Source: Betaproteobacteria bacterium (lineage in GTDB: Bacteria; Pseudomonadota; Gammaproteobacteria; Burkholderiales; Ga0077523). From it: DNA of 64,000 nucleotides. Of this stretch, positions 3,775 through 54,355 are shown one piece after another (position 1 is the stretch's first letter; the number at the start of each line of letters is the position of its first letter). A program made the position numbers and the translations under genes. The stretch covers positions 296,192 to 360,191 of the forward strand of contig JADJPK010000008.1 in NCBI GenBank assembly GCA_016713305.1. The letters are read 5' to 3'. Under the pieces are notes generated by a model that saw only the letters and a list, made by a program, of their open reading frames with translations, did not search any database and was not told the origin of the DNA.

Positions 3775-3844
3775 GATTGCGGAATAGAATCCGGAAAGCG
3801 CCCTTTCACCCCGCGTCACTCCGGATTGCCGACTCTAACACACC

Positions 3845-5323
3845 ATGTCGATCATTCTCGCCCTGGATCAGGGAACCACCAGCTCCCGCGCGCTCGCCTT
3901 CGATGCGGAGGGACGCGTGCGCGGCATGGCGCAACGCGAACTGCCGCAGATCTATCCTCAGCCCGACTGGGAGGAGCATGACCCCGAGGTGATCTGGGCC
4001 ACCCAGCTCGCCACGGCACGCGAAGCGCTCGCGAAGGCAGATGCGGTGCCCGGCGACGTGGCGGCGATCGGCATCACCAATCAGCGCGAAACGACGGTCG
4101 TGTGGGACCGCAGCACCGGACGACCCGTGGCGAACGCCATCGTCTGGCAGGACCGCCGGACCGCGGAAGTCTGCGAGGCGCTCAAGCAGGCAGGACACGA
4201 ACCGCTCTTCCGTGCACGCACGGGACTGATGCTGGACCCCTACTTCTCCGGCACCAAGGTGAGCTGGATCCTCGATCACGTCCCGGGCGCACGGGCGCGC
4301 GCGGAAGCGGGCGAACTGCTCTTCGGCACCGTCGATTCCTGGCTTGTGTGGAAACTGACAGGGGGGCGCATCCACATTACCGACGCCAGCAATGCTTCGC
4401 GCACGCTCTTGTTCGACATCGCCAGCGGCGACTGGAACGATGCACTGCTGGACGTGCTGCGGGTGCCGCGTGCCATGCTGCCGCGGGTCGTCGCTTCGGG
4501 CGATCGGGTTGCGATGACGGACGTGGACGTGATGGGTGCCGCGATTCCCGTGGCCGGCATCGCAGGAGATCAGCAGGCCGCCTTGTTCGGCCAGCGATGC
4601 ACGGCGCCCGGGCGCGTCAAGAACACCTACGGCACCGGGTGCTTCATGCTCATGCACACGGGCACGCGCATACCGGAATCGAAGCATTCGTTGCTGTCCA
4701 CGGTGGCGTGGCAGCGGGAGGGCCGGACGGAGTACGCGCTGGAGGGCAGCGTCTTCGTCGCCGGCGCGGCGGTGCAGTGGCTGCGCGATGGTCTGGGCAT
4801 CATCTCCACCGCCGCCGAAGTGGAGGGCCTGGCCAGAACAGTGCCCGACAATGGCGGGGTGAGTTTCGTGCCGGCGTTCACGGGCCTGGGTGCCCCGCAC
4901 TGGGATCCCTTCGCACGGGGCACGCTTTGCGGTCTCACGCGGGGCACCACGCGCGGCCACATCGCGAGAGCGGCCCTGGAAGGCATTGCGCTCCAGACGG
5001 CCGACATCCTCGATTGCATGCAGGCGGACGCCGGCGTGCCGCTGCGCGAGTTGCGCGTGGACGGTGGAGCCACCCGGAACGACCTGCTGATGCAGTTCCA
5101 GGCCGACGTGCTGGGCGTGCCGGTCGTGCGCTCCACCGGCACGGAGTCCACGGCACTGGGTGCCGCGTTCCTTGCGGGCCGCGCCGTGGGATTCTGGCCG
5201 GACGACGCATCGCTCGACGCGCTGTGGCAGGTCGAACGCGTATTCGAGCCTTCCATGAGCGCCGACCGCGTGCAGTCGCTCAAGGCGCAGTGGCGCAAGG
5301 CGATCGGACAGGCGCGGGCCTGA
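3845..5323 (+). CDS. glpK: Glycerol kinase
   Basis: 492 aa. [53 protein letters not shown] and [15 protein letters not shown] are textbook GlpK/FGGY motifs. Confidence 0.95.
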
Positions 5324-7257: not shown

Positions 7258-7421
7258 GTCTCCCCCCACCTGTTCGAGTCGTCCCACAATGCTACTCGCT
7301 CCGTGGCCCGGGTTCGTGACGCCGGTCAATGCGGCTCGGCGCACTTGGCGCGAGGCACGGGCGTGGCCGGCCACCGCAGCCCTGCCATTACACTGCAGCA
7401 CCTGCACCGGAGCACCACCTC

Positions 7422-8606
7422 ATGACCACTATCCACGATCGCGAGTCCGTTCGCGCGTTCACTCTTCACACTCATGCCGAATGTCCGGCACGGCGTGCCG
7501 GTCCGCTCTCCGGGCTCAAGTGCGGCATCAAGGACATCTACGACATCGAAGGTCATCGGACGGGATTCGGCAACCCCGACTGGCTGGCGAGTCACGGACC
7601 CGCGGAGCGTTCAGCGACGGCGGTCCTGCGATTGCTCGACGCGGGCGCAGAGGTGACGGGAAAGACCCATACGGACGAGATGGCGTGGAGCCTCTTCGGC
7701 GAGAACGCGCACTACGGAACTCCAGTCAACGTCAATGCGCCCGGCCGGATACCCGGCGGGTCCTCCAGCGGCTCTGCCGCAGCGGTTGCGGCGGGACTGG
7801 TGGATTTCGCCCTGGGTTCGGACACCGGCGGCTCCGTGCGCTTTCCCGCGAGCCTGTGCGGAGTCTTCGGCATGCGGCCTTCTCACGGCCGCATCCCTCT
7901 CGATGGCGTTCGTCCGCTCGCGCCGAGCTACGACACGGCGGGCTGGTTCGTGCGCGATGCCGCCGTCCTGGAACGAGTCGGGCGTGTATTACTGGGAGAT
8001 GGGGGTCCCGCGCCCGGTGTCGGAGACGTGCTGATCGCAACGGATGCCTTCGAGTGGGCAGGAGCCGAGATCGCAAACGCGCTGGCGCCGGCGGTGGCTC
8101 GAATCGAGGCGGCACTGGGACCAGCGCGCAGGGTATCACTGGGAGGCGAGGGCTTCGCCGAGTGGAGCGAGGCCTTTCGAAACCTGCAGGCCGCGGAGGC
8201 ATGGGAACAGCACGGCGCGTGGGTGGAGGCCCGGCATCCCGCCTTCGGTCCCGGGGTGCGCGAGCGGTTCGAGTACGCGCGCACCGTGGAGCCGGGCAAG
8301 GTGCTGGCGGCAAGGCAGTTGCGCGAACGGCTATCCGAGCGGATGGCGTCGCTCCTCCAGGGGAATGCGGTGCTGATCATGCCGACGGCGCCCGGCATCG
8401 CTCCGCCGGTGAATTCTCCCGCCGAGCCGATGAACGTGTATCGCGCCAAGTGCATCGGCCTCCTCTCCGTCGCCGGGCATGCGCGCCTGCCGCAAATCAA
8501 TCTCCCGCTCGCGACGATGGAGGGGTGCCCCCTGGGCGTCTCGCTGCTGGGTGCGCGGGGCCACGATCTGTTGCTGCTCGAAGCCGCACGTGCAGTGAGC
8601 GCGTGA
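7422..8606 (+). CDS. Amidase-signature family hydrolase
   Basis: GIKDIYDIEG ... GRIPGGSSSGSAAAVAAGLVDFALGSDTGGSVRFPASLCGVFGMRPSHG is the amidase signature (GGSSGG/S-cisS-K triad region). Start taken at ATG 7422 (MTTIHDRES...). Confidence 0.9.
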   Translation: MTTIHDRESVRAFTLHTHAECPARRAGPLSGLKCGIKDIYDIEGHRTGFGNPDWLASHGPAERSATAVLRLLDAGAEVTGKTHTDEMAWSLFGENAHYGTPVNVNAPGRIPGGSSSGSAAAVAAGLVDFALGSDTGGSVRFPASLCGVFGMRPSHGRIPLDGVRPLAPSYDTAGWFVRDAAVLERVGRVLLGDGGPAPGVGDVLIATDAFEWAGAEIANALAPAVARIEAALGPARRVSLGGEGFAEWSEAFRNLQAAEAWEQHGAWVEARHPAFGPGVRERFEYARTVEPGKVLAARQLRERLSERMASLLQGNAVLIMPTAPGIAPPVNSPAEPMNVYRAKCIGLLSVAGHARLPQINLPLATMEGCPLGVSLLGARGHDLLLLEAARAVSA

Positions 8607-8872
8607 TGCTGTGCCGCGAACGCTGCGGCGCCTGTTGCATCGCTCCGTCCATCGCTTCTCCCATCCCGGGCATGTCCGGCGGCAAGCCGGCCGGCGTTCG
8701 CTGCGTGCAGCTCACGGACGATCTCCGCTGCGCCATCTTCGGCCGTCCGGAAAGGCCCGCATGCTGCTCCGGTCTTCGGCCGCAGATCGAGATGTGCGGG
8801 GATTCGCGCGAGCACGCCCTGAGCTGGCTGGATGCGCTCGAGACTGCGACGCGGCCCACCGCCGAGGAGTGA
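8606..8872 (+). CDS. YkgJ-family Cys-cluster (zinc/iron-chelating) protein
   Basis: 88 aa: MLCRERCGACCIAPSI...CVQLTDDLRCAIFGRPERPACCSGL. The CxxCC ... C ... CC pattern is typical of UPF0153/YkgJ. Its ATG shares one base with the amidase stop (TGATG), which suggests translational coupling. Confidence 0.7.
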   Translation: MLCRERCGACCIAPSIASPIPGMSGGKPAGVRCVQLTDDLRCAIFGRPERPACCSGLRPQIEMCGDSREHALSWLDALETATRPTAEE

Positions 8873-9028
8873 ATCTCGATCGAATTGCCTGATGTCGAGG
8901 TGTTTGACAGTGCACTGCGGGACAGGGCACGGACGCGCCATTTGATACTGCCACCATTGAAGTTGATCCGTGCTGGTCCGGCCCTTGCACAGTCCGCCGG
9001 AGCGTTTGAACCTGCGTGAGATCCCAAG

Positions 9029-11203
9029 ATGTCCGACAACAATTTGCTGGAACGAGCCCGCGCCCTGGCCGGGTCCACCGCCTTCGTCGCCCTGCCGCTT
9101 GCCGCCGTCGCCCCTGCCGCCAACGCCGTCACCTTGTTGACCGACTACTCGGTCGTGGGGGAATACTCCAACTCCGGCTGGTTCATGTCCTGGCTGGACG
9201 ATGCCGCGGCCGACGCCACGCCGCTGGGCAACGGATTCAAGCTGACCGGCAGCAAGACCATCACGGACAGCCTCTTCTGGCGCTGGGACGACAACGTACA
9301 GGCCACCGTGCGCCGGTACGACGTCACCGGGATGGCCTTCGCGTGGGGAGGCGCCATCGACGGTGCACTGCGCCCGGGTGACACGCTCTCGGCTCCCTTC
9401 GACCTGATCCTCGACTACACCCACACGCTGCCGCAGTTCGCTGCCTACGATTACTTCGGCGTGAACTGGCATCTCACGGTGGGACTGCGCGCCGACGGCG
9501 ACAGCCCGTACACCCCTGACTTCTACCGCACGTTGCCTACCAGCAATTCCGTCTCGTATGTCGACACATACGGATCGGTCGATCAGCCCGGGCAGTTCGG
9601 CTTCTCGGGCAACCTCAACATCTCGATCGACGATTGGGCGTCCCAGGCCACGCACTGGTATGCGGTGCTCACCGTGGACTGGAACGATGCGCTCGCCCAG
9701 CGCGGGTACGAAGACACGCATGGCAGCCACAACGGCGATACGCTCACCTTCACGGTGCCAGGCGACTCCATCGATCTGACGATCGCGCAAGGAAAGACGA
9801 CCTTTGCGGGCGAGACGATCGAGAACAACGGCGGATACACCGTGCCGTCGTGGTCGATCCTCCGGACGGCAGGAACCTTCCGCAATCTGTCGAGCGCGAC
9901 TCTGCGCATCGAAGGCACAGCCGAGACGACCGAAGGCGGTGTCGTCCAGAACCTCCTGGGCGGCCTCGTCCAGAACGCAGGCACGTTCCGCAACCTGTTC
10001 GGCGGCCTGTTCGGAAACGCCGGAACCTTCGACAACGAAGCGGGCGGCACCGTCGAGAATTCCGGCACGATCAAGAACATGCTCGGAGGCCTGTTCGGAG
10101 GCGCAGGCCAGGTCACCAACAACAGCGACGGCGTGATCGAGAACGCCGGAATGATGCGCGGGCTGCTCGGCGGTTCCTTCGACAACTACGGCAAGGTCGA
10201 CAACCTGGCCGGCGCGACCATCGAGAACGAAGGATCCATGCAGAACATGTTCGGCGGCCTCTTCGGCAACGCCGGGACGATCCTCAACAAGAGCGGTGCA
10301 GACTTCTCCAATGCGGGCACGTTCACCAATGCGCTGGGTGGCCTGTTCGGCAATGCAGGAACGCTCACCAACCAGTACTCCGGTCTCTTCGGCAACATCG
10401 GGACGCTCAACAATGCGCTGGGCGGACAGCTGTTCAACTACGGCCAGTTCACCAACTCCAGCAACCATACGGTCAACAACGACGGCTACTTCTTCACTGA
10501 CGGCATGCTGGAGAACACGTCGACCGGCGTGTTCAACAACAACGGAACGGTCGAGATCGGTTACAGCGGTTCGCTGATCAACGATGGCGAGTTCAACAAC
10601 GAGGGCGCGATCGCGAATTCCGGCTACGTCTACGTCGGAGCAGTGGGAACGATCGGCGGGTCCGGAACCTATGAGCAGTGGTACGGGTACACGATGGTCG
10701 ACGGCACGCTCTCGGCCTCGCAGATCGCTCTGCACGGGGGCTACCTGGCGGGGTCCGGCGTCCTGACGGCAACGGCCTCGCTCACGATCGACGAAGGGGT
10801 GTCGATCATGCCGGGTGGCGAGGACGCCGCCGGCCAGCTCACGATCGAGGGCGATTTCGCGCCGGACGCCACCAGCGGGCTGCTGATCGACATCAAGGGT
10901 GCGCAGCAGGGCACCGAATACGATCTCCTGGCCATCGCGGGGGAAGCCTCGCTCGCGGGAAATCTCTATCTGTACATGGGATACGAACCTGTCCCGGGGA
11001 CGGTCTTCACCATTCTCACGGCCACGGGCGGCGTGCACGGCCAGTTCGCCAACATCTTCGCCGGCGGCCTGCAGGTGGCGCCGATCTACGGCACGGACAG
11101 CGTGTCGATCCAGTTCGGCGCCCCGGTGCCGGAACCCGGTACCTACGCGATGTTCCTCGCCGGACTGGGCCTGCTCGGCCTGTGGAGCAAACGCCGCCGG
11201 TAA
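9029..11203 (+). CDS. PEP-CTERM sorting-domain surface protein with internal GGLFGNAGT-type repeats
   Basis: 724 aa. There is an N-terminal signal-like segment (AFVALPLAAVAPAANA). About 15 degenerate 14-17-aa repeats (NLFGGLFGNAGTFDN / NMLGGLFGGAGQVTN ...) span about 9950-10500. The C-terminus VPEPGTYAMFLAGLGLLGLWSKRRR is a canonical PEP-CTERM motif followed by a TM helix and basic tail. Confidence 0.9.
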   Translation: MSDNNLLERARALAGSTAFVALPLAAVAPAANAVTLLTDYSVVGEYSNSGWFMSWLDDAAADATPLGNGFKLTGSKTITDSLFWRWDDNVQATVRRYDVTGMAFAWGGAIDGALRPGDTLSAPFDLILDYTHTLPQFAAYDYFGVNWHLTVGLRADGDSPYTPDFYRTLPTSNSVSYVDTYGSVDQPGQFGFSGNLNISIDDWASQATHWYAVLTVDWNDALAQRGYEDTHGSHNGDTLTFTVPGDSIDLTIAQGKTTFAGETIENNGGYTVPSWSILRTAGTFRNLSSATLRIEGTAETTEGGVVQNLLGGLVQNAGTFRNLFGGLFGNAGTFDNEAGGTVENSGTIKNMLGGLFGGAGQVTNNSDGVIENAGMMRGLLGGSFDNYGKVDNLAGATIENEGSMQNMFGGLFGNAGTILNKSGADFSNAGTFTNALGGLFGNAGTLTNQYSGLFGNIGTLNNALGGQLFNYGQFTNSSNHTVNNDGYFFTDGMLENTSTGVFNNNGTVEIGYSGSLINDGEFNNEGAIANSGYVYVGAVGTIGGSGTYEQWYGYTMVDGTLSASQIALHGGYLAGSGVLTATASLTIDEGVSIMPGGEDAAGQLTIEGDFAPDATSGLLIDIKGAQQGTEYDLLAIAGEASLAGNLYLYMGYEPVPGTVFTILTATGGVHGQFANIFAGGLQVAPIYGTDSVSIQFGAPVPEPGTYAMFLAGLGLLGLWSKRRR

Positions 11204-11232
11204 CTCGCCGCATCATCGCCATCGGCACATGA

Positions 11233-11254
11233 GGCCAGACGTTCGCGTCTGGCC
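11233..11254 (+). terminator. Hairpin downstream of the PEP-CTERM gene
   Basis: ggccagacg-ttc-gcgtctggcc has a 9-10-bp stem and begins 30 nt after the stop at 11203. It is followed by ttatgcttt. Confidence 0.45.
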
Positions 11255-11267
11255 TTATGCTTTGGAG

Positions 11268-12470
11268 ATGACACCACAAAGGCTCCTGCTTCTGCTCGGT
11301 CAGAACGCCTTCGATCCCACGAGCGGTGCTGCGCAATCCATGCGGCAGGCCGCAGAAGTGCTCGCCGGCGCGGGCTGGAATGTCCGCGCCCTTTGCACCA
11401 GCGGTTGCGAGGGGGACGTGGAGGGAGACCCTGCCGCCATGCTCCGCGAGCGAGGGGTCGTCGCGGTGGAGCAGGCTTCGCTGACGCCGTCCGGCGCGCG
11501 GGTACTGGCGGCCTCCCGCGCAGGCGTCCTGCACGAGATCGTCTGCGTCGATCCTGCTCGAAAGCGGTATTGGGAACGCGACGCCGGTCCGGAGTACCAC
11601 GCCCGGCTGGACCGGATCGTCCGCGAATTTGCTCCGCAGGTCGTGCTCGCCTTCGGCGGCGATCCGGGCGACGAACGCCGCCGCACCGTGCTCCGCGCAG
11701 CGGGGGCTCGCGTGGTGTTCGCCCTGCACAACCTCGCCTACCTGAAAAGCAGACCGGCGCAGGTGGATGCGTTTCTCGCGCCCACGGAATTCGTCGCCGG
11801 GCGCTATCGCGAGGCGTGGCATGCGGACGTGCAGGTCCTGCCCACGCCGATCGTGCCCCAGGGAATCGTGGCCGATCGCCGGGACGCCGTGTTCACGACG
11901 TTCGTCAATCCGGAACCCGCCAAGGGATTGTGGATCGTGGCGCGGCTCGCACAGATGCTGGGCGAGCAGCGGCCCGACATTCCCCTCCTGGTCGTGGAAG
12001 GGCGCATGTCCGCCTCGAACCTGATTGCGGCAGGGCACGCGATGGACGCGGATCTCTCGCGTTTTCCGAACCTGATGTTCAGCCCCGCCGTGGCGGACGT
12101 TGCGGCGCTGTGGGCGACCTGCCGGATGGTGCTTGCGCCCTCGATCGTGGAGGAGGCGGCAGGCCGCGCAGTGCTGGAGGCCATGGCCAATGGCGCCGTG
12201 CCGCTGGTGTCGGACCGTGGCGCTCTGCCGGAAACCGTGGGCGACGCGGGCGTGGTGCTGCCGCTACCAGGCAGTCTCTCGCTTGCTTCTGCGGGACCGG
12301 TGAGTCAGGAGGTCGCGCGGCCTTGGTTCGACGCGATCACGTCGTTCGTGGATGACGAGGAACGCTATGCACGCGCATCGGAGCGTGCAAGGCGCCATGC
12401 CACGCGCTACCTCCAGGATCAGGTGGCACCGGCCTACGGCGCCTGGTTCGAATCCGTGATGGTTCGCTGA
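11268..12470 (+). CDS. Glycosyltransferase, GT4-like (GT-B fold)
   Basis: 400 aa from ATG 11268. The C-terminal SIVEEAAGRAVLEAMANGAVPLVSDRGALPETVGDAG is the E-x7-E retaining-GT motif region. The earlier ATG at 11229 lies upstream of the terminator hairpin in low-GC3 sequence and was rejected. Confidence 0.8.
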   Translation: MTPQRLLLLLGQNAFDPTSGAAQSMRQAAEVLAGAGWNVRALCTSGCEGDVEGDPAAMLRERGVVAVEQASLTPSGARVLAASRAGVLHEIVCVDPARKRYWERDAGPEYHARLDRIVREFAPQVVLAFGGDPGDERRRTVLRAAGARVVFALHNLAYLKSRPAQVDAFLAPTEFVAGRYREAWHADVQVLPTPIVPQGIVADRRDAVFTTFVNPEPAKGLWIVARLAQMLGEQRPDIPLLVVEGRMSASNLIAAGHAMDADLSRFPNLMFSPAVADVAALWATCRMVLAPSIVEEAAGRAVLEAMANGAVPLVSDRGALPETVGDAGVVLPLPGSLSLASAGPVSQEVARPWFDAITSFVDDEERYARASERARRHATRYLQDQVAPAYGAWFESVMVR

Positions 12471-18063: not shown

Positions 18064-20123
18064 TCATGGCCGTTCTTCGCCCGTGTGCCGCCGCCCGAGG
18101 GATTCGAGCAGCAGATTGCCCATCGCGTCGCGCCGCGCCAGGAAGCCGGGTTCCACGACGACGGTGGTGTCCAACTGCTCCACGATGGCGGGCCCCTCGA
18201 ACTCCGCAGTTTCGGGCAGCGCCTCGCGGCGATAGACCGGCGTGTCGCGCCACCCGCCTTCGAACCACACCGGCCGCCGTTCGCGCAGGGCCTCCCGCAG
18301 CGTCGGCGCGGGGGCGCCGCGGCCCAGATCCGCCAGCGGCAAGGCCTTGCGGCGTCCCAGCACGGCCGTGTGCAGGTTGACGAGCACGGGCCGGATCTCC
18401 GGCAGCGTCACCTGGAACCGGTGCCAATAGGCCTGCTCGAAGGCCCGGCGGATGTCGTCCCGGGAGACGTCCCGCCCGGCCAGGGGATCGTGAGCAGGTG
18501 GCTCTGGCCCTGGAACTGCAGATCGGCCTCGTACAGGGATTCCACCGATTCGATGGCAGCTTCCTGCCGGGCCAGCATCGTCCGGCCCTCGGCGGTCTGC
18601 TCGTCGAGCACCGCACGAACCAGTCCGTCGGGCAGGTCGGACAGGGGCACGTTCACCGTGCGCACGAAGTCGTGCCGCAGGTCCGCGACGGCGCAGCCGA
18701 GGGCGTTGGTCAGTCCCGGCCGGGCCGGAACGAGCACCTGGGGTATGCCCAGTTGGCGCGCGAGCGCACACGCATGCAGCGGGCCCGCGCCGCCGAACGC
18801 GAAGAGCGCGAAATCGCGCGGATCGTAGCCGCGCGCCAGGCTCACCATCCGGATGGCGCCCGCCATGCGGTCGTTGGCGACCCTGAGGATGGCCGCGGCC
18901 GCCGCGTCGGCCTCGACGCCGATGGGCTGGCCGATCCTCTGTTCCAGGCGCTCCCGCACGCGGGCCAGCGTGACGGGGGCGTCGACGGCCAGGAGCCGGG
19001 CGGGATCCAGGCGGCCCAGCACGAGATTGGCGTCGGTGATCGTCGGTTCCTCGCCGCCGCGCCCGTAACAGATGGGGCCGGGCCGCGCACCTGCGCTCCG
19101 CGGGCCCACCTGCAGCAGCCCGGCCTCGTCGATCCGCGCGATCGAGCCGCCCCCGGCGCCGATGGTGTGCACGTCGACCATCGGCACGTGGATGGGCATG
19201 GCGTATTCCAGCTCCAGCTCCGTGCTCAAGCGCGGCATGCCGTCCTCGATCAGGGCCACGTCGGTGGAGGTGCCCCCCATGTCGTAGGTGATCAGCCGGG
19301 GCAGCCCTGCGGCACGGCCGGTCGCCGCCGCGGCGATCACGCCCGAAGCGGGGCCGGACATGACGGAGCTCACGGCGAACTCGTGAGCCACACCTGCTGC
19401 GGTCGTTCCCCCGTTGCCCTGCATGACCAGCAGTTCGCTGCGGAACCCCCCGGCCGCAAGTCCGTCGCGCAGCCGGGCGAGATAGCGGTGGAGCACCGGC
19501 TGCACGGACGCGTTGACGGCGGCCGCCACACCTCGTTCGTACTCGCGGTATTCGGACAGCACCTGGTGACCGAGGGTCACGTAGCCGTTGGGCCACAGCG
19601 AACGCGCGATCTCGCCGGCCCGCAACTCGTGTGCCGGGTTGCGATAACTGTGCAGGAAGTGGATCGCGAGCGACTCGCAGCCCGCCGCAAGCAACTGGTT
19701 CACGGCCTGCCGGACGGCCTCCTCGTCGAGCGGTTTCAGGATTTCGCCGTCGGCGTCCATGCGTTCCCGAACCTCGAGGCGCCGTTCCCGCGGCACCAGC
19801 GGTACGAACGTGCCCGTCAGTCCATACGGCGTGGGTCGGGTTCGGCGCCCGACCTCCAGGACATCCCGAAAGCCTTCGGTCGTGATGAGCCCCACGAGCG
19901 GAAGACGGCGTTCGAGGAGCGCATTGGTCGTGGCGGTCGTGCCGTGAACGATGGCGTCGAGACTGTCGAGCGGCAGGCGGGCCTGTTCCAGCGCGGCGAG
20001 CACGCCCAGGGCCTGGTTGTCGGGTGTGGTGGGAACTTTTGCGACCCGAACTTCACCGGTAGCGCTGTCGAATACGATCAGATCGGTGAACGTGCCACCG
20101 ACATCAATCCCTGCGGTTCTCAT
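18064..20123 (-). pseudogene. hyuA: Hydantoinase A / oxoprolinase family subunit, frameshifted as sequenced
   Basis: The N-terminal 545 aa or so (MRTAGIDVGGTFTDLIVFD...) are in ORF 18408..20123. The C-terminal 140 aa or so (...RDVSRDDIRRAFEQAYWHRFQVTLPEI...) are in the -1 frame (ORF 18064..19596). The switch maps to the G4 run at 18483-18486 (coding strand ATCCCCTGG). One extra C would give ...HLLTIPLAGRDVSRDD... and a normal 686-aa protein. Confidence 0.85.
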
Positions 20124-20282
20124 GGGCGCAGTTTAGCGGGGCCGACCGCAAAAATATCGCGCTATCCCGCCCGAAATGCCGTTCCCGGGGTTGACGAAAC
20201 CCGCCGATGGCGTAGATTCCGGGGCATCGGCCGAAGCCTCCCCGAGGGCCCCGGCACTACCAGAACAATCGGAGACCTCGTC

Positions 20283-20921
20283 ATGAAAATCGCGCGTTCC
20301 ATCGCGGCCGCCCTAGCCACGTTGCTGGTTGCAGGTGCGGCGAATGCCTTTACCCTGTCCCTTTCGAATCCCGGCAGCGTTTCCCTCGGCCAGACCTTTG
20401 CGGTGTCCGTCGGATTCCAGCCCGAGCCCACCGATACGCTCGACCAGCTGGCGAGCGCGCAGATCGCCCTGAACTTCGACAACACCGCCCTCGAGCTGGT
20501 GATCCCGGCGAGCAATTCGGACTTCCTCGGCAGCTTCATCTCCACCGATTTCGCGGTGACCGATGCCGTGCTTCCCGGCGACCCCCTCGGTCAGCCCGAT
20601 CAGGTCTCGCTGCTGGCTGAACTGGGTTTGCTGGCAACAGGTCCCAGCGGGGGTGGAGAACTGTTCAAGTTCAATTTCCGCATGCGCAACGACCCGGCCC
20701 TCGAAGGTACCGGACCGTTCTTCTTCAGTGCCAATGCAATTCTCGGTTTCAACATGCCCGATCCGGGTTCTTCGAGCGACCGGCTCGCGGCCCGTGGCGC
20801 CGTGGATGTGCAGCGCAACACGGTACCGGAACCTGAAGGGTTGGTGTTGCTGGGCATCGCGCTCGTCGCGGCCGGTGCCGCGACACTGCGCCGGGGACAC
20901 CGCCCGACCCGTCGCACGTGA
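20283..20921 (+). CDS. Small PEP-CTERM protein with a cohesin-like domain
   Basis: 212 aa from ATG 20283 (GGAGA 7 nt upstream). Signal peptide MKIARSIAAALATLLVAGAANA. The core ...VSLGQTFAVSVGFQP...ASAQIALNFDNTALELV... has the cohesin-type pattern. The C-terminus VPEPEGLVLLGIALVAAGAATLRRGHR is a PEP-CTERM motif. Confidence 0.8.
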   Translation: MKIARSIAAALATLLVAGAANAFTLSLSNPGSVSLGQTFAVSVGFQPEPTDTLDQLASAQIALNFDNTALELVIPASNSDFLGSFISTDFAVTDAVLPGDPLGQPDQVSLLAELGLLATGPSGGGELFKFNFRMRNDPALEGTGPFFFSANAILGFNMPDPGSSSDRLAARGAVDVQRNTVPEPEGLVLLGIALVAAGAATLRRGHRPTRRT

Positions 20922-21000: not shown

Positions 21001-21032
21001 GAAGGCCCGCGATTGCGGGCCTTCGTTTTTTT
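21001..21032 (+). terminator. Rho-independent terminator after the small PEP-CTERM gene
   Basis: gaaggcccgc-gatt-gcgggccttc has a 10-bp stem and is followed by gttttttt. Confidence 0.75.
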
Positions 21033-21219
21033 GCGTACGTGCGGTCGCTTCTTGCGGCAGAAACGAGAACCCGGGCATGGTGGTCCTTCCCCTGCTCCGT
21101 GCCGCAGTGCAGGTCTGGCCGATCTGCCGCGATCGAGCCCATGCGGTCACGGGGAACGGCGCATCTCCCGCGCCCGTCATCGGGCCGGTCGCATTCGCCG
21201 ATGCCGGAGCCCGTCCTGA

Positions 21220-21414: not shown

Positions 21415-24400
21415 ATGAAGCGTCCACGCCCGCAGTCCGTCCATTTTTCGTCCGCCGCCCGTCCTCCTTTCGCCCGCAAGGCCCTGTTCGAACGGCTCGA
21501 GCCGCGCATCCTGCTGTCCGCGGACGCCCCCGGACTCGTGGATTCGGCAGGATTGCTCGCGATCCAGCTGGGGGATGCCGGCCACGAAGTCGTGGTCACG
21601 CGGACCGGCGATGCGCAGAACGGCGGCGCCCTCCTGCGCGTCGACATCGACGGATCGTTCTGGGACTTCGGCGACGCCGCCGATGGCGTGACGTCGCTGC
21701 GCATCGACGGTGGCGCCGGCGACGACCGGATCGACGCTTCCGGCGCGGCTGTCACCACGACCGTGGATGGTGGCGCGGGCCAGGATTCCCTGGTCGGACC
21801 GCGGCAGGACGTGCGCTGGTCCCTCACGGGGGACGGTGCGGGTGCGGTGGGAGGCGTGACCTTCAGCCGCATCGAGAACCTGCTGGGCGCTGCGGACAAC
21901 CGGGATACGTTCGTGCTCTTCGCCGGCGGCGGGTTGAGCGGCACGGCGGATGGCGGATCCGGCGGATTCGACTCCCTCGAGATCGATGCGGGTCCCATCT
22001 CGCTGGCGCGGTTCCTCGCCGACGGTCCGGATTCGGGGGTGGTGGAACTCGACGGCGACACCTTCCGTTATGCCGGCCTGGAACCGATCACGCTCACCAG
22101 CACCGCAGGTGAGATCGTCGTCGATGCCACGAGCGACGACAACACGCTCGTGCTCGAGGCCGACCCCACCAACAGCGCGAACCTGCGCGTGCGCAGCACC
22201 GACGGCACCATCGAGAGCGTGTCGTTCGCCCGCGCGTCGACGTCGATCACCATCAATCTGCTGGGCGGCGACGATTCGCTGGATATCGGCGATCTGGGCG
22301 CGGGCATCACGGCATCGCTCACGGTGGATGGCGGCGACGGCGACACCGATCTGATCACGGTGTCGGGGGACGTCGTACTTCCGGGGAAGGACGTGTCCCT
22401 GTCCGCGGAGACGGTCACCGTCGCCTACACGGGCAGCCTCTCCGTGCGCACGACGGCGGCGGGTGCAGACCAGGAAACGGCGGCGTCCACCGGCGGCTCG
22501 GGCAACATCGCGTTGCTGGGTCAGAACGTCGTCGTTGCCGCGGATGCCAGGCTGCTCTCGCAGGACACCCGGGCGGGACAGGCCTCCGCCGCGATCTCGC
22601 TCGGAACGGTCGCGGGCGACTGGACGGCAAACAAGCTCGGCACGCAAACCGTTTCGGGCACGTGGACCCGTGGACTCACCCACCGCCTCGTCGGCGCGAC
22701 GTCCACTTCCGGATCGGGCGACGGCATGGTCGTGGACATCTCGGTGGATGCCTCCGGGAACGTGTCGGCCACGCTGGTGGACATCGGCGAGGACTACGTG
22801 GTGGGTGACACGGTCACCTTCGACGAGCCGGATCGGAATCCCGACGGAGGCGACGACCTCTCCACGAACGGGTCGGTCACCTTCACGCTGGTCGCCTCGC
22901 ACAAGGGTGTGCGTCCGGCGGAAACCTCGGGCGACGGCGAAGGCATGACCGTCGACATCGATGTCGACGCGAGCGGCACGCTGACCGTCTCGATGGACAG
23001 CCCGGGCGCCCGCTATGCGGTGAACGACACCGTCACCTTCAACGATCCGCTGGAGACGTTCGACCCCTTCGGCCAGGACAACACGGCGGAGGTGACCGTC
23101 ACGGCCTGGGCGGGCAACATCCTCGTGGAAGGACGGCATCAGTTCACCTCCGCCTCTGCCTTCCAGTTCTACGACGCGATCGACACCGAGCCGCTCGTCA
23201 CGGTGGATGGGGCAACGCTCCGCGGCGAGAACATCACGATCCGCGCGGTGGCCAACTCCATCAACGAGCCGGGCGAGGACGAGGTCGTCGGCCAGACCGT
23301 GGACGATCTCGGCCTGGGCGGGCTGGACGACCTGAACGCATTCTTCGGCATGGTGAAGGCCACCTCCACGGCGCAGGCGGGCGTCGCGGCCGCGGTCGTC
23401 ACGAGCGGACTGACGCAGGCCGGCACCTGGACAGGCGATCTTTCGCACGCGCGCGTCGCCGCGACGTCCACTTCGGGCAGCGGCACCGGCATGCTCGCCG
23501 ACATCGAGGTCGACGGTGACGGGCTCGTCACGATCACCGTGGTCAATCCTGGAACGGGCTATCAGGCCGGAGACACGGTCACCTTCTCGGAACCCGGCGA
23601 AGACGCCGACGGCGAGGCGCTCAGCACCAACGGAACCATCTCGGTCCGGATCGACCTCTGGCAGCCGACGATCATTCGCGCGGAAGGCGACGTGAACGTC
23701 GAGGCGTGGGCCGGCGCCAAGGCGGACCTCCTCACGGGCGGTGTGCTGTTCGGTCTGGGCCTCACGTTTGCAACCGTCGATGCCACGGCGTACGTGGCGG
23801 GAGGCGCGGACATCACGTCCGGCGGCGCGCTGCGCGTGCAGTCGCTGGCCGAAAACATCTCCGACATGGCCGTCAACGTGACGTCCGCCCGCAGCATCCC
23901 GACGCTGAGCGGCGGCTATGCCGCCGCACGCAGCATCGTGGACGCCCATGTCGACTCGGGCGCGCTGCTGTCGGTGCACTCGCTCGACGTGCTCGCCGAT
24001 ACGCAGAACGACGTGAACGCGACCGTCGTGCCGTTGGAACTGGTCGATGCGCAGTCGAGCGGCATGGCCGTGACGATCGCGGTGATCGACTCCGACACCA
24101 CGGCGTTCGTCGACGCCGCGGTCACCGTGCCGGGCGACGTGTCGGTGGTCGCCTCCACGGAAGTCGAGAACGAGAACACCGCCGCAGCCGAGCCGAGCAG
24201 CGCCACCGGCGGCATCCTCGGCGCCGGGTTCGGCGCGATCAAGAACAAGATCAGTTCGAAATCCGCGCCCGCGCAGAGCGGCGCGGAGAAGTTCGAATTC
24301 TCGGCGGGCATCGCCGTCACCTTGTCGGACAACGACTCCACCGCGTACATCGGGTCGAATGCGGACGTGAAGGCGGGAGGTGACGTGACCGTCGACGCTT

Positions 24401-33300: not shown

Positions 33301-34165
33301 GACGATCGATCCCGACCTCGGTCTGCGGTGGGGAGCGGTGGAACAGATCGGCGTGACGCTCGGTTCGGGCATCGACACGCTGACCGTGCTGGGCATCGAC
33401 ACGTCCACGACCCTGAACGCGGGCGCCGGAGTCGACGTGATTTCGCTGGGCAGTCTCGCTGCCGGCGGCGGGCTTGCTTCCATCGCCGCCGCATTGACCG
33501 TGCACGGCGGTTCGGACGGCGCCACCCTCAACGTGGCCAGTGCCGCGAAGGCCGACGTCACGCTGACACGCACGTCGTCGACGCTCGGACGGATCACCGA
33601 GGCAGGCGCTGCCGGACGGGTCGATTTCGACGGCGTCACTCTTGTCTCGGTGCGCCTGGGGGATGCGGACAACGCGCTCTCGATCGTCGATACGGTCGCG
33701 CCGGTGGACGTCACGGCGGGGTCGGGCAGCGACAGCGTGTCCGTGGACAACCTGTCGCATGCGACCTCGCTGCACCTGGGCGATGGCGCCGACTCGGTCG
33801 TGGTGCGGGCCGCGGCAGCCGCACTGTCCGTCTCCGGCGAAGGCGGAAGCTCGGACCGGGATTCTCTCGAACTGGATCTGACCGGCCTCACGGCAGCCGT
33901 CGACGGAACGGTGTCCGGTTCCGGCACGGCCGGAAGCCTCAACGGGTTCACCACTGCTGCGATCGCCTTCGACACGATCGAGGATCTCCGCGTGCGCCTC
34001 GGAAGCGGCAACGACACCGTGGCGATCGCACACGCGCTGTCGGCGACCGACGTGATGGTCGAAGGCGCATCCGGCGACGACACGATGACCGTGACGTCGA
34101 TCGGTGGGGGTCTCACGACACTCACGGGAGGGGACGCGTTCGACACGGTGAAGGTCGTGATTCCC
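30395..34165 (+). CDS. Giant gene segment C (solenoid repeats, then GSGxDT(L/V) calcium-binding-like repeats)
   Basis: Tracked ORF 30395..35479. It is meaningful up to ...GGDAFDTVKVV(I). Beyond about 34166 this frame turns into Arg-rich noise. Confidence 0.8.
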
Positions 34166-35665
34166 CGGCGTACCGGTCGCGAATGCGTTCACGAATCTGC
34201 GGCTGGACGCGGACCGTCTGGTGGTCGACAACAGCGGCAACGCGGTACAGGCGGTGACCTGGACCGTCGAAGACGGGGTGCAGATCGACGCCGATGTGGG
34301 CGCGGGCCGCGTTCCTGTGATCTTCGCCGAAGGCGCCAAGGAAATCCGCGTGCTGGGCGGCACGCAGTCGGACACGTTGAACGTGGTGAGCACGCTGCCC
34401 GCGGACATCGAGGGCCGGGTGACCGACCACCGGGTCGAATTGTCCGCGGGTGCCGTGGTGCTGGAGTACGCCGACAACGCGCAGTTCCGCGACTACGACA
34501 GGGCGCTGAGCTTCGATGCGCTCGCCACGGGCAGCGCGAGCTACTCCGAGGATGGGTTCACCCTCGCGCCGCTGCCTTCCGGTTCGCTCGCACGCAGCGA
34601 TGCGGTGAGCGCGGCCGCCCGGTTCACGGCGGGCCAGTCCGGCCGTCTGACGGTCGCGGGAGCGCTCTTCTCGCTCTCGTCGATGCGCCTGGGGTCGACC
34701 GCGGCAGCGGGCACGTCGGTGAGGTTCACCGGAACGACCTTCAATGGCGCCACCGTTCAGGTCGACGTTCCGGTCGTCGGTGCCGAGGCCGCGTCGGGCC
34801 TGCCGGTGTTCCGGCGCGCCGATTTCACCAATCCGCTGTTCGGTGCACTGGCGAAGCTGGAGTGGACAGTGACCGGGAGCGGAGACCTGCTGATCGACGA
34901 CGTCGTGGCCACACCCTTCGACGGATCGGCGTCCGCGGTCGTCACACCCGGCGCCGTGCCGGCAACGACGTCCATGGCCGGTCCGATCGCGCTGCTGTTC
35001 GACACGGACAACCTGCGGATCGTCGTCGACGCCAACCGCAATGGCGCCTTCAATGCAGGCGAGACCACCTATGCCTCCGGTTCGTCCTTCTTCGGCGTTC
35101 CGCTGACGATCTCCACCGTGGGCACGGACGGCACGGTCCGCGCCGACGGCACGTCCCAGGCGGCCGATCGCATCACCCAGTTCCGGCTCGCCGGCGACCT
35201 GGTGCTGCCGTCGGGCACGACCGCCACAGCGACGACCGTCAAAGGCATCGGCAGCCGCGGCGTCAGCCTCGTCGTCGGCAACGATCTGGTGATCGGCGCG
35301 AACGTCGATTTCGACTTCTCCGCCGTGGCTACCACCGCCGGCCCGGGGGGCGGCACCGCGGGCGGAGGCGCCACTGTTTCCGGTTCGCAGAGCAGCGCGG
35401 GCGGCGGCGGAGCGGGAGGGGGCGGCGGCAGCACGTCGGGCACGCTCTCGAACGGCGGAAGCGGCGGCGCCGGGACTGACTCGTACACGCTGCGCGATGG
35501 CGTGGCGGGCGAGGACGGGGGTGACGGTACGAGCGGTTCCCCGGGTGTCGCCGGGGGGGCGGGCGGGGCGGGAACAGGCGGCGGACTCGGTGTCAACAAC
35601 GCCTCGGGTGCAGGCAGTGGCGGGTCAGGTGGAGCCGGCGGCGGCAGCGTCACGGGGGTACGAGG
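34166..35665 (+). CDS. Giant gene segment D (beta-sandwich-like region, start of the Gly-rich tract)
   Basis: Tracked ORF 34221..36107. The frame is open upstream to 34166 (FPGVPVANAFTNLRLDADRLVVDNSG...). It is meaningful to about ...GGAGGGSVTG. The end coordinate is approximate. Confidence 0.75.
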
Positions 35666-43426: not shown

Positions 43427-43900
43427 CGGGCACCCGATGATTGGCACGCCACCGGTCAACGGGACGCTGACGCAGAATCCGGACGGGACGTTCACGTACA
43501 CACCGAAGCCGGACTTCAACGGCACCGACACCTTCACCTTCGTGGTGACGGACGGAACGAACACTTCGACGCCGGCGACGGTGACGATCCTTGTGACGCC
43601 GCAGCCGGATCTGCCGACCGTGCCGAACCAGCAGATCACGGTGCCGGAAGACCATTTCACCAGGATCGATCTGGTGACCGGAGCGACGGATCCGGACGGC
43701 GATCCGCTCACGCCGGTGATCGGCACGCCGCCGGTCAACGGCACGCTGACGCAGAACCCGGACGGGACGTTCACGTACACGCCGAAGCCGGACTTCAACG
43801 GCACCGACACCTTCACCTTCACGGTGACGGATGGGACGAACACCTCGACGCCCGCGACGGTGACCATCGTCGTGACACCCCAGCCAGATCGCCCCATCGT
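42482..43900 (+). repeat. Cadherin-like 93-95-aa repeats, including three near-identical 279-bp tandem units
   Basis: The units follow the pattern NxAPxAxDD...D(L/P)LxND(S/T)D.D.DPL......P.HG......DG..TYTP...F.GTDSFTY.VSDG......ATVTV. Units at 43034-43312, 43313-43598 (carrying 7 extra nt) and 43599-43877 are nearly identical at the DNA level. Confidence 0.85.
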
Positions 43901-45827
43901 CACGACGGAAACGGCCTCGTTGCGTGCAGTGGCGGACGAGGGCGAACTGGTCATCATGCAGTTCGACATGTTCGATCCTGACGGCGAGCTGCTCCAGTTG
44001 AGCCTTTCCGGCGCGCCGTCCGGCGCGACGGTGCTGGCGTTGAGCGCGACACGCGGCGAAGTCCGCTGGACGGCTTCGGACGGAGAGGCGACCTACCCGT
44101 TCGAGATCGTGGTGAGCGACGGCACTTCGGAAGTGAGGACGGAAGCGGCGGTGCTGGTGCACAACGTGGCGCCGGTGCTGACGGCCACCGGCGCGGCGAC
44201 GGCGCTGTCGAATCAGCCGTACGTGCTGAGTCTGGGATCGTTCGACCCCGGTGAGGACACCCTGCAGACCTGGGTGGTCGACTGGGGCGACGGCAGTGCG
44301 CTGGAGACGGTGGCGGGCAATACCCCGAGCTTGACTCACGTGTTCCGCGAGCCTGGCAAGACCCACCGCATCCAGGCCGGTGCGATCGACGAGGATGGCG
44401 CGTGGAGTGCGGCGCCGCTGGACGTGCAGGTGATCAACCCGAGGCTGTACGTCACCCAGTGGAACGCCACCGAAAGCGGGGTGAACGTGCGCTTCAGCCG
44501 CAGCGTCGACGCCAGCGTGCTGAACCTGTACGAAAGCGCGCTGGACCCGCAAGGCGGAACGGATCTGGTCCTGGTCGGACCGGACGGAAAGCCGGTGCGG
44601 GGCAACCTCATTCTGGATGCCGACCGGCAAGGCTTCAGCTTTGTCGCCACCGGCGGGGGGCTGGCGGCGGGCCGCTACGAATTGACCCTGTCGGCGCGGA
44701 CCAATGCCTTCGTCGACAGCGACGGGATCGGCCTGGACGGCAACAAGGACACCATCGGTGGCGACGACTTCCGGGCCAGTTTCACGATCGCCCCCATCGC
44801 CAAGCCCACCCTGAGCATCGCCGACTTCGTCATCGGGCCCAAACAGGTCGCCGACGTACCCGCGACCAGTCGCGGCATCCCGCTGACGCTGACCAGCGAA
44901 GTGGCGGTGAGCGAGCTCAGCTTCGGTCTCAAGCTCGACCCGGCGCTGCTGGAGATCATCGGCATCGAAGGCGGAGCGGACTTGCCTGCGGGAAGCCAGA
45001 TCCGCATCACCGGAGCGGGCGGCAGCTATGGCATCACCGTCACACTGTCCGGACCGCTGGCAGCCGGAACGCATGAAGTGCTGCGGCTGCTGGGTTCCGT
45101 ACCTGCCACGGCGCCCTATCGTGCCGCCCAGGTGCTGGACCTGCACAGCGTCCGCGTCAATGGACAGAGTGCCAGGGCCGACGACGGCGTGCACATCGCC
45201 GCCTATCTGGGCGACACCACGGGAGATGCCCGCTATACCAGCCTGGACGGCCAGCGGATCAACCGCTACGTCGGCGGACTGGACGGAGGCTTCGGTGCAT
45301 ACAAGACGCTCGATCCGGTGCTCGTCGGCGACGTGGACCGGAACGGTGTGCTCGATGCCGCCGATACCCTCATCGTCAGCCGTGAATCGCAGTACCTGCT
45401 GAGCGGCAACGTCAATCTCGATCAGAAGCAGATCGCCCCGATTCCGGCGACGCAGCAGAGCGCGACGCTGGGAACGGACAGCGTGGGGGTGAGCGCTCCG
45501 GTGGCTGCCACGGCGAGCCGGACTGCCATCAAGACGGTGGTGCCAGCGGCCCCGGCGAGCCCGGCCACGAACTGGCTCGATCAGGCGATGCGGACATTGA
45601 ATGCCATGAGGGCGCCGAGCCTGCCAGTGGAGGATGTGGAGATGAGATTCCTGAGCGGCGAGCGGACGTGGGAGAACCTCAACGTTCCGGTGCCGGACAC
45701 GAGCTGGAAGGTGACGCTGCCCAGGCTCACGAGCGGGGTGGTGCTGAGCGAGGCGGCGCTGCCTGCCGGATTGACGCAGGACACACTGGCCGCACTGAAG
45801 TACCTGGCGAAGCGGAAGGGGCGGTAA
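43434..45827 (+). CDS. Giant gene segment F (last cadherin-like repeats, PKD-like module, cohesin-like and dockerin-like C-terminus)
   Basis: Tracked ORF 43437..45827. It resumes the interrupted repeat exactly at P-M-IGTPPVNGTLTQNPDGTFTYTPKP. The stop TAA is at 45825-45827. Confidence 0.85.
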   Translation, partial: PMIGTPPVNGTLTQNPDGTFTYTPKPDFNGTDTFTFVVTDGTNTSTPATVTILVTPQPDLPTVPNQQITVPEDHFTRIDLVTGATDPDGDPLTPVIGTPPVNGTLTQNPDGTFTYTPKPDFNGTDTFTFTVTDGTNTSTPATVTIVVTPQPDRPIVTTETASLRAVADEGELVIMQFDMFDPDGELLQLSLSGAPSGATVLALSATRGEVRWTASDGEATYPFEIVVSDGTSEVRTEAAVLVHNVAPVLTATGAATALSNQPYVLSLGSFDPGEDTLQTWVVDWGDGSALETVAGNTPSLTHVFREPGKTHRIQAGAIDEDGAWSAAPLDVQVINPRLYVTQWNATESGVNVRFSRSVDASVLNLYESALDPQGGTDLVLVGPDGKPVRGNLILDADRQGFSFVATGGGLAAGRYELTLSARTNAFVDSDGIGLDGNKDTIGGDDFRASFTIAPIAKPTLSIADFVIGPKQVADVPATSRGIPLTLTSEVAVSELSFGLKLDPALLEIIGIEGGADLPAGSQIRITGAGGSYGITVTLSGPLAAGTHEVLRLLGSVPATAPYRAAQVLDLHSVRVNGQSARADDGVHIAAYLGDTTGDARYTSLDGQRINRYVGGLDGGFGAYKTLDPVLVGDVDRNGVLDAADTLIVSRESQYLLSGNVNLDQKQIAPIPATQQSATLGTDSVGVSAPVAATASRTAIKTVVPAAPASPATNWLDQAMRTLNAMRAPSLPVEDVEMRFLSGERTWENLNVPVPDTSWKVTLPRLTSGVVLSEAALPAGLTQDTLAALKYLAKRKGR
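44808..45165 (+). other. Cohesin-like module near the C-terminus of the giant protein
   Basis: TLSIADFVIGPKQVADVPATSRGIPLTLTSEVAVSELSFGLKLDPALLEIIGIEGG...GITVTLSG...HEVLRLLGSVPATAP...LDLHSVRVNG shows the cohesin-type pattern (ipv.l.s...v.....f.l.yDp.lL.i). Confidence 0.5.
45210..45389 (+). other. Dockerin-like duplicated EF-hand module
   Basis: GDTTGDARYTSLDGQRINRYV ... GDVDRNGVLDAADTLIVSRE forms two D-x-(D/T)-x-(D/N)-G-x-(hydrophobic)-x3-D loops, each followed by a helix. The spacing is typical of type-I dockerins. Confidence 0.55.
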
Positions 45828-45843
45828 GCATGGGCCCCTACTT

Positions 45844-45934
45844 CGGTCCCTGGGCCCTAGACCCTAGACCCCAGACCCTGGACCCTAGACCCTGGACCCT
45901 AGACCCTGGACCCTGGTCCCTGGTCCCTGGTCCC
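45844..45934. repeat. Heptanucleotide microsatellite (CCCTRGW) x13
   Basis: cggtccc tgggccc tagaccc tagaccc cagaccc tggaccc tagaccc tggaccc tagaccc tggaccc tggtccc tggtccc tggtccc. It begins 17 nt after the giant-gene stop. The complementary strand carries 13 GGG tracts with 4-nt loops. Confidence 0.9.
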
Positions 45935-46002: not shown

Positions 46003-46047
46003 CCTAGGGTCCAGGGTCTGGGGACCAGGGTCTGGGGTTGGGGGCCC
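46003..46047. repeat. Inverted copy of the heptamer array (AGGGTCY-type, about 6 units)
   Basis: cctagggtccagggtctggggaccagggtctggggttgggggccc is the reverse complement in type of the 45844-45934 array. It carries six G3-5 tracts on the plus strand and ends 1 nt before the fixJ-like stop codon (46049-46051). Confidence 0.8.
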
Positions 46048-54018: not shown

Positions 54019-54355
54019 GGGCCCTCGTGTCAGTTGTCGCGGCCGCCGTTGCCGGTGTGGCAGGCGTCCTGCCGGATCTCGTGGATATCGGCATCCGGAA
54101 TGTCCGCTTGAGTGCGCGGACATCCTTGTGGACCTTGCGGAAAGCACCGTTACAGAGCGGATTCTGCACTTCATGCCACCGTCCTGTGCAGGGGTTCAGC
54201 GCGATTTGTCGCACCTGCGCGCGGAAATCGAGGAAATGAAAGCCAAAAGAGATTCACGCCGCTCTCGGGGATTCTGGCACCGCCATTGCGGTCTGCCGGC
54301 GCTAGTGCCCATCCGGGCGCGATCCCGCAAGAAAACGACGAAAGGAGAGCAGACG

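Follow-up and report, generated by a model that had tools for sequence, protein, structure and literature searches.

A small PEP-CTERM cohesin gene beside a giant dockerin-bearing LEPR-XLL gene in a betaproteobacterium: two candidate halves of a cell surface tether

Two neighbouring genes and their modules

We analyzed a window of 64,000 nucleotides from the genome of a Betaproteobacteria bacterium (GenBank assembly GCA_016713305.1, contig JADJPK010000008.1, positions 296,192 to 360,191 of the forward strand), in which a small gene coding for a 212-residue protein stands directly upstream of a giant gene coding for a surface protein of the LEPR-XLL type (Table 1). A sequence-only reading of the window had proposed the small protein as an exosortase-sorted cell surface receptor carrying a single cohesin-like domain and the giant as its dockerin-bearing ligand. 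Here, we describe the modules of both proteins, compare the locus with those of other genomes, and weigh this tether against other explanations.

The small protein is identical to NCBI MBK8017277.1, deposited as [quoted passage not shown] (MAG, metagenome-assembled genome). Its gene had been described as having its own ribosome-binding site and terminator, and candidates for both are found: the sequence GGAG lies 9 to 12 nt 5' of the ATG, and a hairpin followed by a run of seven T residues lies downstream. The candidate promoter agrees with the consensus at 9 of 12 positions, and the consensus scan gave one such site against 0.2 expected. The N terminus, MKIARSIAAALATLLVAGAANA followed by F at the predicted cleavage site, is by eye a typical Sec signal. 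At the other end, the sorting signal passes the TIGR02595 model (16.9 bits, cut-off of 16) and falls below the Pfam PF07589 threshold (15.9 bits, threshold of 20.7); it can be read directly as VPEP-GLVLLGIALVAAGAATL-RRGHRPTRRT, and members of the same family score up to 25.8 bits. The protein therefore carries both parts of a PEP-CTERM protein, the C-terminal model match and, by inspection, an N-terminal signal peptide.

The central module of the small protein had been called cohesin-like, and profile searches support the cohesin fold. Scored alone, the protein matches Pfam Cohesin PF00963 with an E value of 7e-5 and 23.5 bits, just under the gathering cut-off of 24.1, while five relatives lie above it with 28.2 to 36.7 bits. 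A profile built from the family retrieved only cohesins among its top 17 matches to Protein Data Bank (PDB) sequences, the best being 3l8q (E = 4.5e-7). The AlphaFold2 (AF2) model is a nine-strand beta-sandwich, the jelly-roll expected of cohesins, but we give this limited weight in view of the low confidence of the model (mean predicted local distance difference test [pLDDT] of 53.7, predicted template modeling score of 0.48). Foldseek searches with this low-confidence model nevertheless gave cohesins for all of the top 10 matches (probability of 1.0; template modeling [TM] scores of 0.41 to 0.66, mostly above 0.6), several of them "cohesin-like" modules of Clostridium perfringens glycosidases. 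As the relatives, the family profile, and Foldseek agree, we accept the borderline Pfam score and regard the small protein as a divergent but genuine cohesin. The family is sparse: a word-indexed search with the single sequence gave two matches, four representatives were found among 1.84 billion proteins, and a profile search extended the family to eight clusters, all of about 210 residues and with the same three-part architecture.

Two further features of the small protein lie between cohesin and sorting signal. The motif LGFN(L/M)PDPxSS is better conserved than most of the cohesin, with LGFN, DP, and one S invariant in all eight aligned members, and may be a site of processing or modification. 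Residues 143 to 176 are a local hypervariable stretch directly before the sorting signal. Between the small protein of the window (P0001) and its counterpart in a population with 98.4% identical DNA (P0013, locus L097), residues 1 to 142 and 177 to 212 are identical, and all 13 differences fall within this stretch (window positions 20709 to 20810), with a cluster of compensating indels at 20788 to 20808.

The giant gene may alternatively start at a TTG at 21298 and ends with a stop codon at 45825 to 45827. Its N terminus belongs to the LEPR-XLL family, scoring 25.3 and 28 bits with NF012209 (cut-off of 17), and further domains include LktA_tand_53 (filament) repeats, PA14, a beta-propeller, PKD, and Big_9/cadherin "tandem-95" repeats. 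The domain scans of the giant found no PEP-CTERM tail and no autotransporter domain, as the sequence-only reading had stated, and neither a glycoside hydrolase nor a significant carbohydrate-binding module (CBM) was found in the giant or the neighboring genes scanned. The single protein of about 8,000 residues proposed earlier holds for the total length, but the list of open reading frames (ORFs) and the frame plot of GC content at third codon positions (GC3) divide the gene in the window into six ORF pieces with five frame changes.

The last ORF piece contains the dockerin, at its residues 591 to 651. Scored alone, it matches Pfam Dockerin_1 PF00404 over model positions 2 to 54 of 57 with 22.5 bits (E = 1.3e-4), just under the cut-off of 22.9. 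Together with three relatives it gave a profile for which 27 of 27 PDB matches were dockerins (best, 2ccl_B at 3.8e-6). Both 12-residue Ca loops of a type I dockerin are visible and conserved in the relatives. The AF2 model of this part (pLDDT below 50) is too poor to judge its fold or its packing against the preceding module. The dockerin was correctly placed by the sequence-only reading but is not the C terminus of the protein, since 145 conserved residues follow. This tail, which contains the pattern RFLxGERTW...WKVTLPxLT...ALKY...KK, is about 50% identical in three Burkholderiales/Betaproteobacteria MAGs (L012 to L014) and may serve in secretion or retention; a type I secretion signal was considered, but the scanned ORFs of the window contain no genes of a type I or any other secretion system.

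A module missed in the earlier reading lies directly N terminal to the dockerin. These 134 residues, here called CohA, run into the dockerin without a linker (...HIAAYLGDTTGD...) and were modeled with pLDDT values of 67 to 90. The top 38 Foldseek matches are all cohesins, with TM scores mostly of 0.6 to 0.71, and the best is 2xdh, a non-cellulosomal cohesin of Archaeoglobus fulgidus (TM score of 0.64 to 0.71; root mean square deviation of about 3 to 4 Å for the best matches). CohA, the domain before it, and the 145-residue tail have no Pfam match. Membership of CohA in the cohesin fold is also seen in profile comparison, as it matches CohB, the cohesin that follows the dockerin in other giants, with an hhalign probability of 98.8%. 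The geometry of CohA and dockerin resembles that of the X-module-dockerin dyads of type II and type III systems.

Table 1. Positions of the two genes and of their parts in the window
Feature	Position	Strand	Evidence or detail
Candidate sigma-70-like promoter 5' of small gene	20191..20218	+	Consensus match only: TTGACG-16-TAGATT
Small gene: signal peptide, one cohesin module, PEP-CTERM tail; 212 aa	20283..20921	+	ORF, profile matches
Predicted Sec signal peptide, residues 1-22, cleavage after ANA	20283..20348	+	Inspection of sequence
Cohesin module, residues 32-149	20376..20729	+	Pfam PF00963, family profile, Foldseek
LGFNMPDPGSS motif between cohesin and sorting signal	20742..20774	+	Alignment of eight family members
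PEP-CTERM sorting signal: VPEP, hydrophobic helix, RR-rich tail	20820..20918	+	TIGR02595 and motif by eye
Intrinsic-terminator-like hairpin and T-run 3' of small gene	21001..21034	+	10-bp stem, 8 G-C pairs, then GTTTTTTTGC (T7)
Giant LEPR-XLL surface-protein gene, ~8,137 codons	21415..45827	+	ORF list, GC3 frame plot, domains
LEPR-XLL N-terminal motif (RKALFERLEPRILLSAD)	21484..21540	+	NF012209
Frame breaks of giant gene	~25949, 30395, 34160-34190, 35525-36107, 43427	+	ORF list, GC3 frame plot
Break 1	25949	+	One base missing in C-run vs L097
Break 2	30395	+	One base missing vs L097
Break 5	43427..43434	+	~7 extra bases vs adjacent tandem-95 repeat copies
Conserved domain before cassette, also in P0010 and L012	44442..44804	+	No family match (Pfam)
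CohA, cohesin-fold module of the giant, ends in VPATAPY motif	44805..45206	+	AF2, Foldseek
Dockerin, two Ca-loop/helix repeats (DTTGDARYTSLD and DVDRNGVLDAAD)	45207..45389	+	Pfam Dockerin_1, PDB profile search
C-terminal tail, 145 residues	45390..45824	+	Conserved in L012-L014

Cassettes and small cohesin genes in other genomes

The arrangement of CohA and dockerin is widespread. A genome scan with search patterns taken from the C-terminal cassette alone (the conserved motifs VPATAPY... and ...YLGD) gave 79 loci with a CohA-dockerin cassette, in Burkholderiales, Accumulibacter, Rhodoferax (L071), Aquincola (L089), and other Proteobacteria as well as in Planctomycetota, Rokubacteria, Desulfobacterales, and Eisenbacteria. 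The cassette occupies the last 210 to 990 codons of a long ORF in every locus except L026, where 2,949 codons separate match and stop. One Gemmataceae MAG (CAVVFU01) has at least nine copies, and two loci (L042 and L078) contain two cassettes in tandem.

The domain map of 80 cassettes, including that of the window, shows 37 with the order Coh-Doc-Coh, 36 with Coh-Doc (among them the window and L012 to L014), and 7 others. The additional cohesin of the first group, CohB, is a strong match to the small-protein profiles. The small cohesin family of the window matches CohB with an hhalign probability of 97.1% (E = 6e-11), against 45% for CohA. From these profile comparisons, the small cohesins are best described as the CohB subtype, which many other giants carry as a fused module behind their dockerin. 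As one cohesin type is thus free-standing and PEP-CTERM-tagged in some loci and fused beside the dockerin in others, there is a hint, of the Rosetta-stone kind, that CohB-type cohesins and the dockerin work together.

Small PEP-CTERM genes were also found beside cassettes at the other end of the giant gene. For this analysis a locus was evaluable if at least 900 nt of downstream sequence was available, which held for 67 of the 79 loci (50 proteobacterial and 14 from Planctomycetota among them). In 17 of the 67, the stop codon of the giant is followed on the same strand, mostly at a distance of no more than about 140 nt (gaps of 1 to 140 nt), by an ORF of 180 to 260 residues that has both a signal peptide and a PEP-CTERM tail. 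About 0.7 would be expected from a background of PEP-CTERM ORFs elsewhere in the same downstream flanks (about 1% of genes), which gives a binomial P value of about 1e-18, although the 17 cases form only about eight to nine sequence-distinct groups, so that this value overstates their independence. All 17 are proteobacterial (17 of 50, against about 0.5 expected), and gene pairs of this sort are found in many Proteobacteria of wastewater and freshwater. Pfam recognizes the PEP-CTERM signal in 14 of the 17 proteins, and outside the tail they match none of the curated NCBIfam families. Five of these proteins were combined into a profile (A6), which matched cohesins in 16 of 16 cases in the PDB over its full length (best, 2.6e-7), and in hhalign comparisons it matched CohB with 98.5% and the small-protein family of the window with 86% probability.

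An 18th example, at L010, is a 194-residue PEP-CTERM protein encoded after P0010; neither Pfam nor a sequence search of the PDB gave a cohesin match for it, and its hhalign match is to the tail only. At L021 (Burkholderiales), the place of the small cohesin is taken by the gene for a 659-residue PEP-CTERM protein (3079 to 5100), 215 nt after a Coh-Doc-Coh giant, and this protein looks by eye like a 5'-nucleotidase/metallophosphatase.

The gene order of the window itself, with the small gene upstream, recurs in five further lineages (L003, L004/5, L006-9, L095, and L097/98), so that the synteny of small genes with LEPR-XLL giants, on which the sequence-only reading could have failed, is borne out. 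At L003, L004/5, and L006-9, relatives of the small gene with 33 to 39% identity are separated by about 175 nt from downstream giant genes that code for at least 11,000 residues before leaving their contigs; the N termini of these giants pass the LEPR-XLL model, and their C termini lie beyond the contig ends. In the case of P0005, the most divergent member of the family, the next ORF starts with ...PFKRKAMFE, the beginning of the LEPR-XLL motif. The giants themselves are less alike than their surroundings. Those at L003, L004, and L008 resemble the window giant in only about 75 N-terminal residues over the first 3,275, at a hydantoinase identity of 78%, which suggests a very rapid turnover of the remainder of the giant gene, or its replacement. 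Since they are not homologous to it over that length, the L003-type giants were rejected as a reference for the frame of the window giant, and L097 was used instead.

A predicted surface tether and its alternatives

The reading that we prefer, and to which we would give an even chance, is that the two genes code for the two halves of a Gram-negative cohesin-dockerin surface tether whose binding is predicted from their modules. The small protein would be exported by Sec and processed by an exosortase, leaving its cohesin on the cell surface or within the exopolysaccharide layer. The dockerin of the giant would bind this anchored cohesin in a Ca2+-dependent manner, so that the 8,000-residue adhesin stays attached to the cell. 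In this scheme, CohA would have the role that the X module has in an X-dockerin dyad, and the cohesin of the giant could also take the dockerins of further giants to give a linked matrix. The organism probably uses the exosortase system, since the window codes for a second, strong PEP-CTERM protein (9029 to 11203, 37.7 bits). The recurrent adjacency in 17 of 50 proteobacterial loci and the 37 Coh-Doc-Coh fusions support a functional coupling of small cohesin and giant. In a wider and more tentative form, to which we would not give an even chance, exosortase-processed single cohesins would be the receptors of a widespread Gram-negative display system on which Coh-Doc and Coh-Doc-Coh giants dock, as they would on each other, forming a floc or biofilm scaffold in Accumulibacter, Rhodoferax, Burkholderiales, and their relatives.

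Several observations weigh against the tether. Both window modules, the cohesin and the dockerin, score just under their Pfam cut-offs. Among the 17 downstream small proteins, only 4 match Pfam Cohesin individually, and two of their subgroups (A7 and A8) are weakly cohesin-like, with no cohesin match by sequence in the PDB. On the downstream side, which is the one examined, 33 of 50 proteobacterial and all 14 planctomycete loci have no small PEP-CTERM gene. No exosortase (EpsH/Xrt) was found among the scanned ORFs of the window, which are part of the total.

The tether proposed by the sequence-only reading gains from the identity of the modules, the synteny, and the fusions, but CohA offers the dockerin an obvious partner within the giant itself, and that arrangement can just as directly be read as self-binding or chain formation. 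Under such self-assembly, the main rival, which we consider possible though rather doubtful, the dockerin would bind CohA of the giant, or CohB in other genomes. Binding in cis would close and stabilize a knob at the C terminus, whereas binding in trans would link giants head to tail into polymers or into a matrix. In that case, the small protein with its PEP-CTERM tail would be a separate component of the matrix or surface, a competitor, or a cap, and not the receptor. In 74 of the 79 genome loci, from several phyla, and also in the window, CohA and dockerin are joined with no linker between them, which argues for this explanation, as do the 37 Coh-Doc-Coh cassettes and the frequency of the cassette in Planctomycetota, where none of the 14 loci has the adjacent PEP-CTERM gene. 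The best structural match of CohA, the non-cellulosomal 2xdh, points the same way; the parent protein of that cohesin also has a dockerin. What self-assembly leaves unexplained is the enrichment, about 25-fold or greater, of small PEP-CTERM genes beside giants and the CohB type of the small cohesins. The tether and self-assembly are not mutually exclusive and could coexist.

It is also conceivable, but unlikely in our judgment, that the two proteins have no direct contact, their adjacency reflecting inherited gene order and shared regulation of cell envelope or biofilm genes, with the cohesin serving another ligand such as a polysaccharide or a different protein. All relatives of the window small gene share its hydantoinase and ceramidase neighbors, and because of this common neighborhood the syntenic lineages represent one ancestral locus and not independent evidence. 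The P0004 lineage (L094, 9929 to 10600; L096, 832 to 1461) keeps the small gene in the same neighborhood without an adjacent giant, and in the window a terminator and about 490 nt separate the two genes into transcription units of their own. Cohesin-like modules without a known dockerin partner do exist, as in the C. perfringens glycosidases. Common descent of one locus does not account, however, for the recurrence of the association in unrelated genomic surroundings, where the order is reversed and the small gene lies closely downstream of the giant, nor for the 37 giants in which this type of cohesin is a fusion partner of the dockerin.

Finally, the giant could be a decaying pseudogene, so that the system does not operate in this organism, which we regard as quite improbable. 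The five frame changes in 24 kb speak for decay, one of them, an insertion of 7 nt, is no homopolymer slip, and the protein collection that contains the small protein has none for the C-terminal piece of the giant. Against decay stands the comparison with L097 (also L098), a 98.4% identical locus from a short-read activated-sludge assembly that covers breaks 1 and 2. There, a single ORF of at least 3,821 residues runs uninterrupted across both, each of which is a single missing base in the window. The hydantoinase A gene is likewise frameshifted in the window (net loss of one base, 18475 to 18487) and intact in L097. As all three are intact there, the window assembly seems to carry indel errors, and at least breaks 1 and 2 are most probably of this kind; the MBK8... 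accession series, that of the small protein, comes from long-read activated-sludge MAGs. The GC3 of 0.8 to 0.9 throughout the inferred frame also argues against decay. Absence from the sibling assembly has been shown for these two of the five breaks, and the broken frame of the giant still counts against the tether.

Related systems and the wider window

Anchoring by cohesins is well known from Gram-positive cellulosomes. In Clostridium thermocellum, the anchoring scaffoldins SdbA, OlpB, and Orf2p, held by SLH domains, bind the type II X-dockerin of the enzyme scaffold CipA. As there, a cell surface cohesin protein would hold a very large dockerin-tailed protein in the window; in contrast, the cargo would be an adhesin-like repeat protein instead of an enzyme scaffold, in a betaproteobacterium instead of on a Gram-positive wall, with no cellulosomal enzymes in view. 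The closest analogue is ScaE of Ruminococcus flavefaciens, a single cohesin with an LPXTG sortase signal that is encoded in the same gene cluster as its ligands and binds the C-terminal X-dockerins of ScaB and of the adhesin-like CttA (PMC5301203). Like ScaE, the window protein is small, with a signal peptide, one cohesin, and a C-terminal sorting signal of the sort cleaved by a transpeptidase-type enzyme, and the genes of anchor and ligand lie in one locus. The ligands are also comparable, being large proteins with a beta-sandwich module directly before the C-terminal dockerin, and CttA is an adhesin and not an enzyme. The differences are that the window anchor is of the PEP-CTERM type (exosortase, Gram-negative) and ScaE of the LPXTG type (sortase, Gram-positive wall), that the module before the dockerin has a cohesin fold and is not an X module, and that in the window the ligand is a LEPR-XLL repeat protein of about 8,000 residues, glycoside hydrolases and CBMs are missing, and binding is a prediction. 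With no carbohydrate-active enzymes or CBMs in the giant and the scanned neighbors, the locus does not belong to the cellulosomes; by analogy, the system would work like the anchoring step of a cellulosome without being one.

Cohesins and dockerins also occur outside cellulolytic organisms, often in one polypeptide, as in the window, where 2xdh is the best match of CohA. Peer et al. reportedly surveyed such non-cellulosomal modules in 2009. A later paper that cites Peer et al. gives their function as unknown (PMC5244752). The sequence-only reading knew of no example linking PEP-CTERM sorting, a cohesin-dockerin pair, and LEPR-XLL giant proteins, and full-text literature searches likewise found no work combining cohesin, dockerin, and PEP-CTERM, or "cohesin domain" and PEP-CTERM; dockerin and exosortase appeared together only in unrelated contexts (PMC5244752). 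A recurrent two-gene arrangement with an exosortase-sorted single cohesin thus appears not to have been described before.

The PEP-CTERM protein PepA is needed for flocculation and raises the amount of bound polymers in Aquincola, a related betaproteobacterium (PMC9850573). Like PepA of Aquincola/Zoogloea, the small cohesins are small secreted PEP-CTERM proteins, and they come from the same ecological group (Accumulibacter, Rhodoferax, Aquincola, and Burkholderiales MAGs). They differ from PepA, however: the matches to its model, NF033554, are far below the threshold (18.3 bits, cut-off of 80) and end in the PEP-CTERM tail, and PepA has not been reported as a cohesin or with a protein ligand. 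The giant resembles the LEPR-XLL ("LEPR-8K") giants of NF012209 in its motif, above the cut-off, and in its length of about 8,000 residues, in a family that is defined by the N-terminal motif alone.

If the tether is real, it would provide a function for widespread non-cellulosomal cohesin-dockerin pairs, name a protein ligand for one class of PEP-CTERM proteins, beyond the genetic link to flocculation, and explain how LEPR-XLL giants of about 8,000 to 11,000 or more residues are retained without a recognizable anchor. Key organisms of activated sludge are among the taxa (Accumulibacter, Rhodoferax, and Aquincola), so that a protein tether would bear on the formation of flocs and granules. An orthogonal cohesin-dockerin pair working on Gram-negative surfaces would also serve surface display.

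Around the two genes, the window codes upstream for a glycosyltransferase, hydantoinases A and B, a DUF3419 protein, a methyltransferase, and a ceramidase, and downstream for a FixJ-like regulator, PAS histidine kinases, a Crp-family regulator, and PCMT. A scan of viral contigs gave no match. Further PEP-CTERM proteins and a group 1 glycosyltransferase are encoded a few kilobases upstream of the small gene in the window (9029 to 11203 and 10899 to 12470) and in related loci (L003, 5508 to 6614; L094, 6058 to 6906). At L094 and L096, where the hydantoinase/ceramidase neighborhood is the same, the next gene after the small one codes, on the opposite strand, for an amidase. The amidase and formamidase ORFs of the window (7329 to 8603 and 53774 to 55843) have partial Pfam matches in two stretches each and may be further cases of frameshifts in this assembly.

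No canonical terminator was found between the giant gene and the convergent gene of the FixJ-like regulator. Just 3' of the giant stop, at 45848 to 45934, lies a tandem repeat of 7/14 nt, (CCCTGGA/CCCTAGA) x 12, and about 80 nt beyond it, still between the two convergent genes, there is a short inverted copy, AGGGTCC x 4, at 46006 to 46037.

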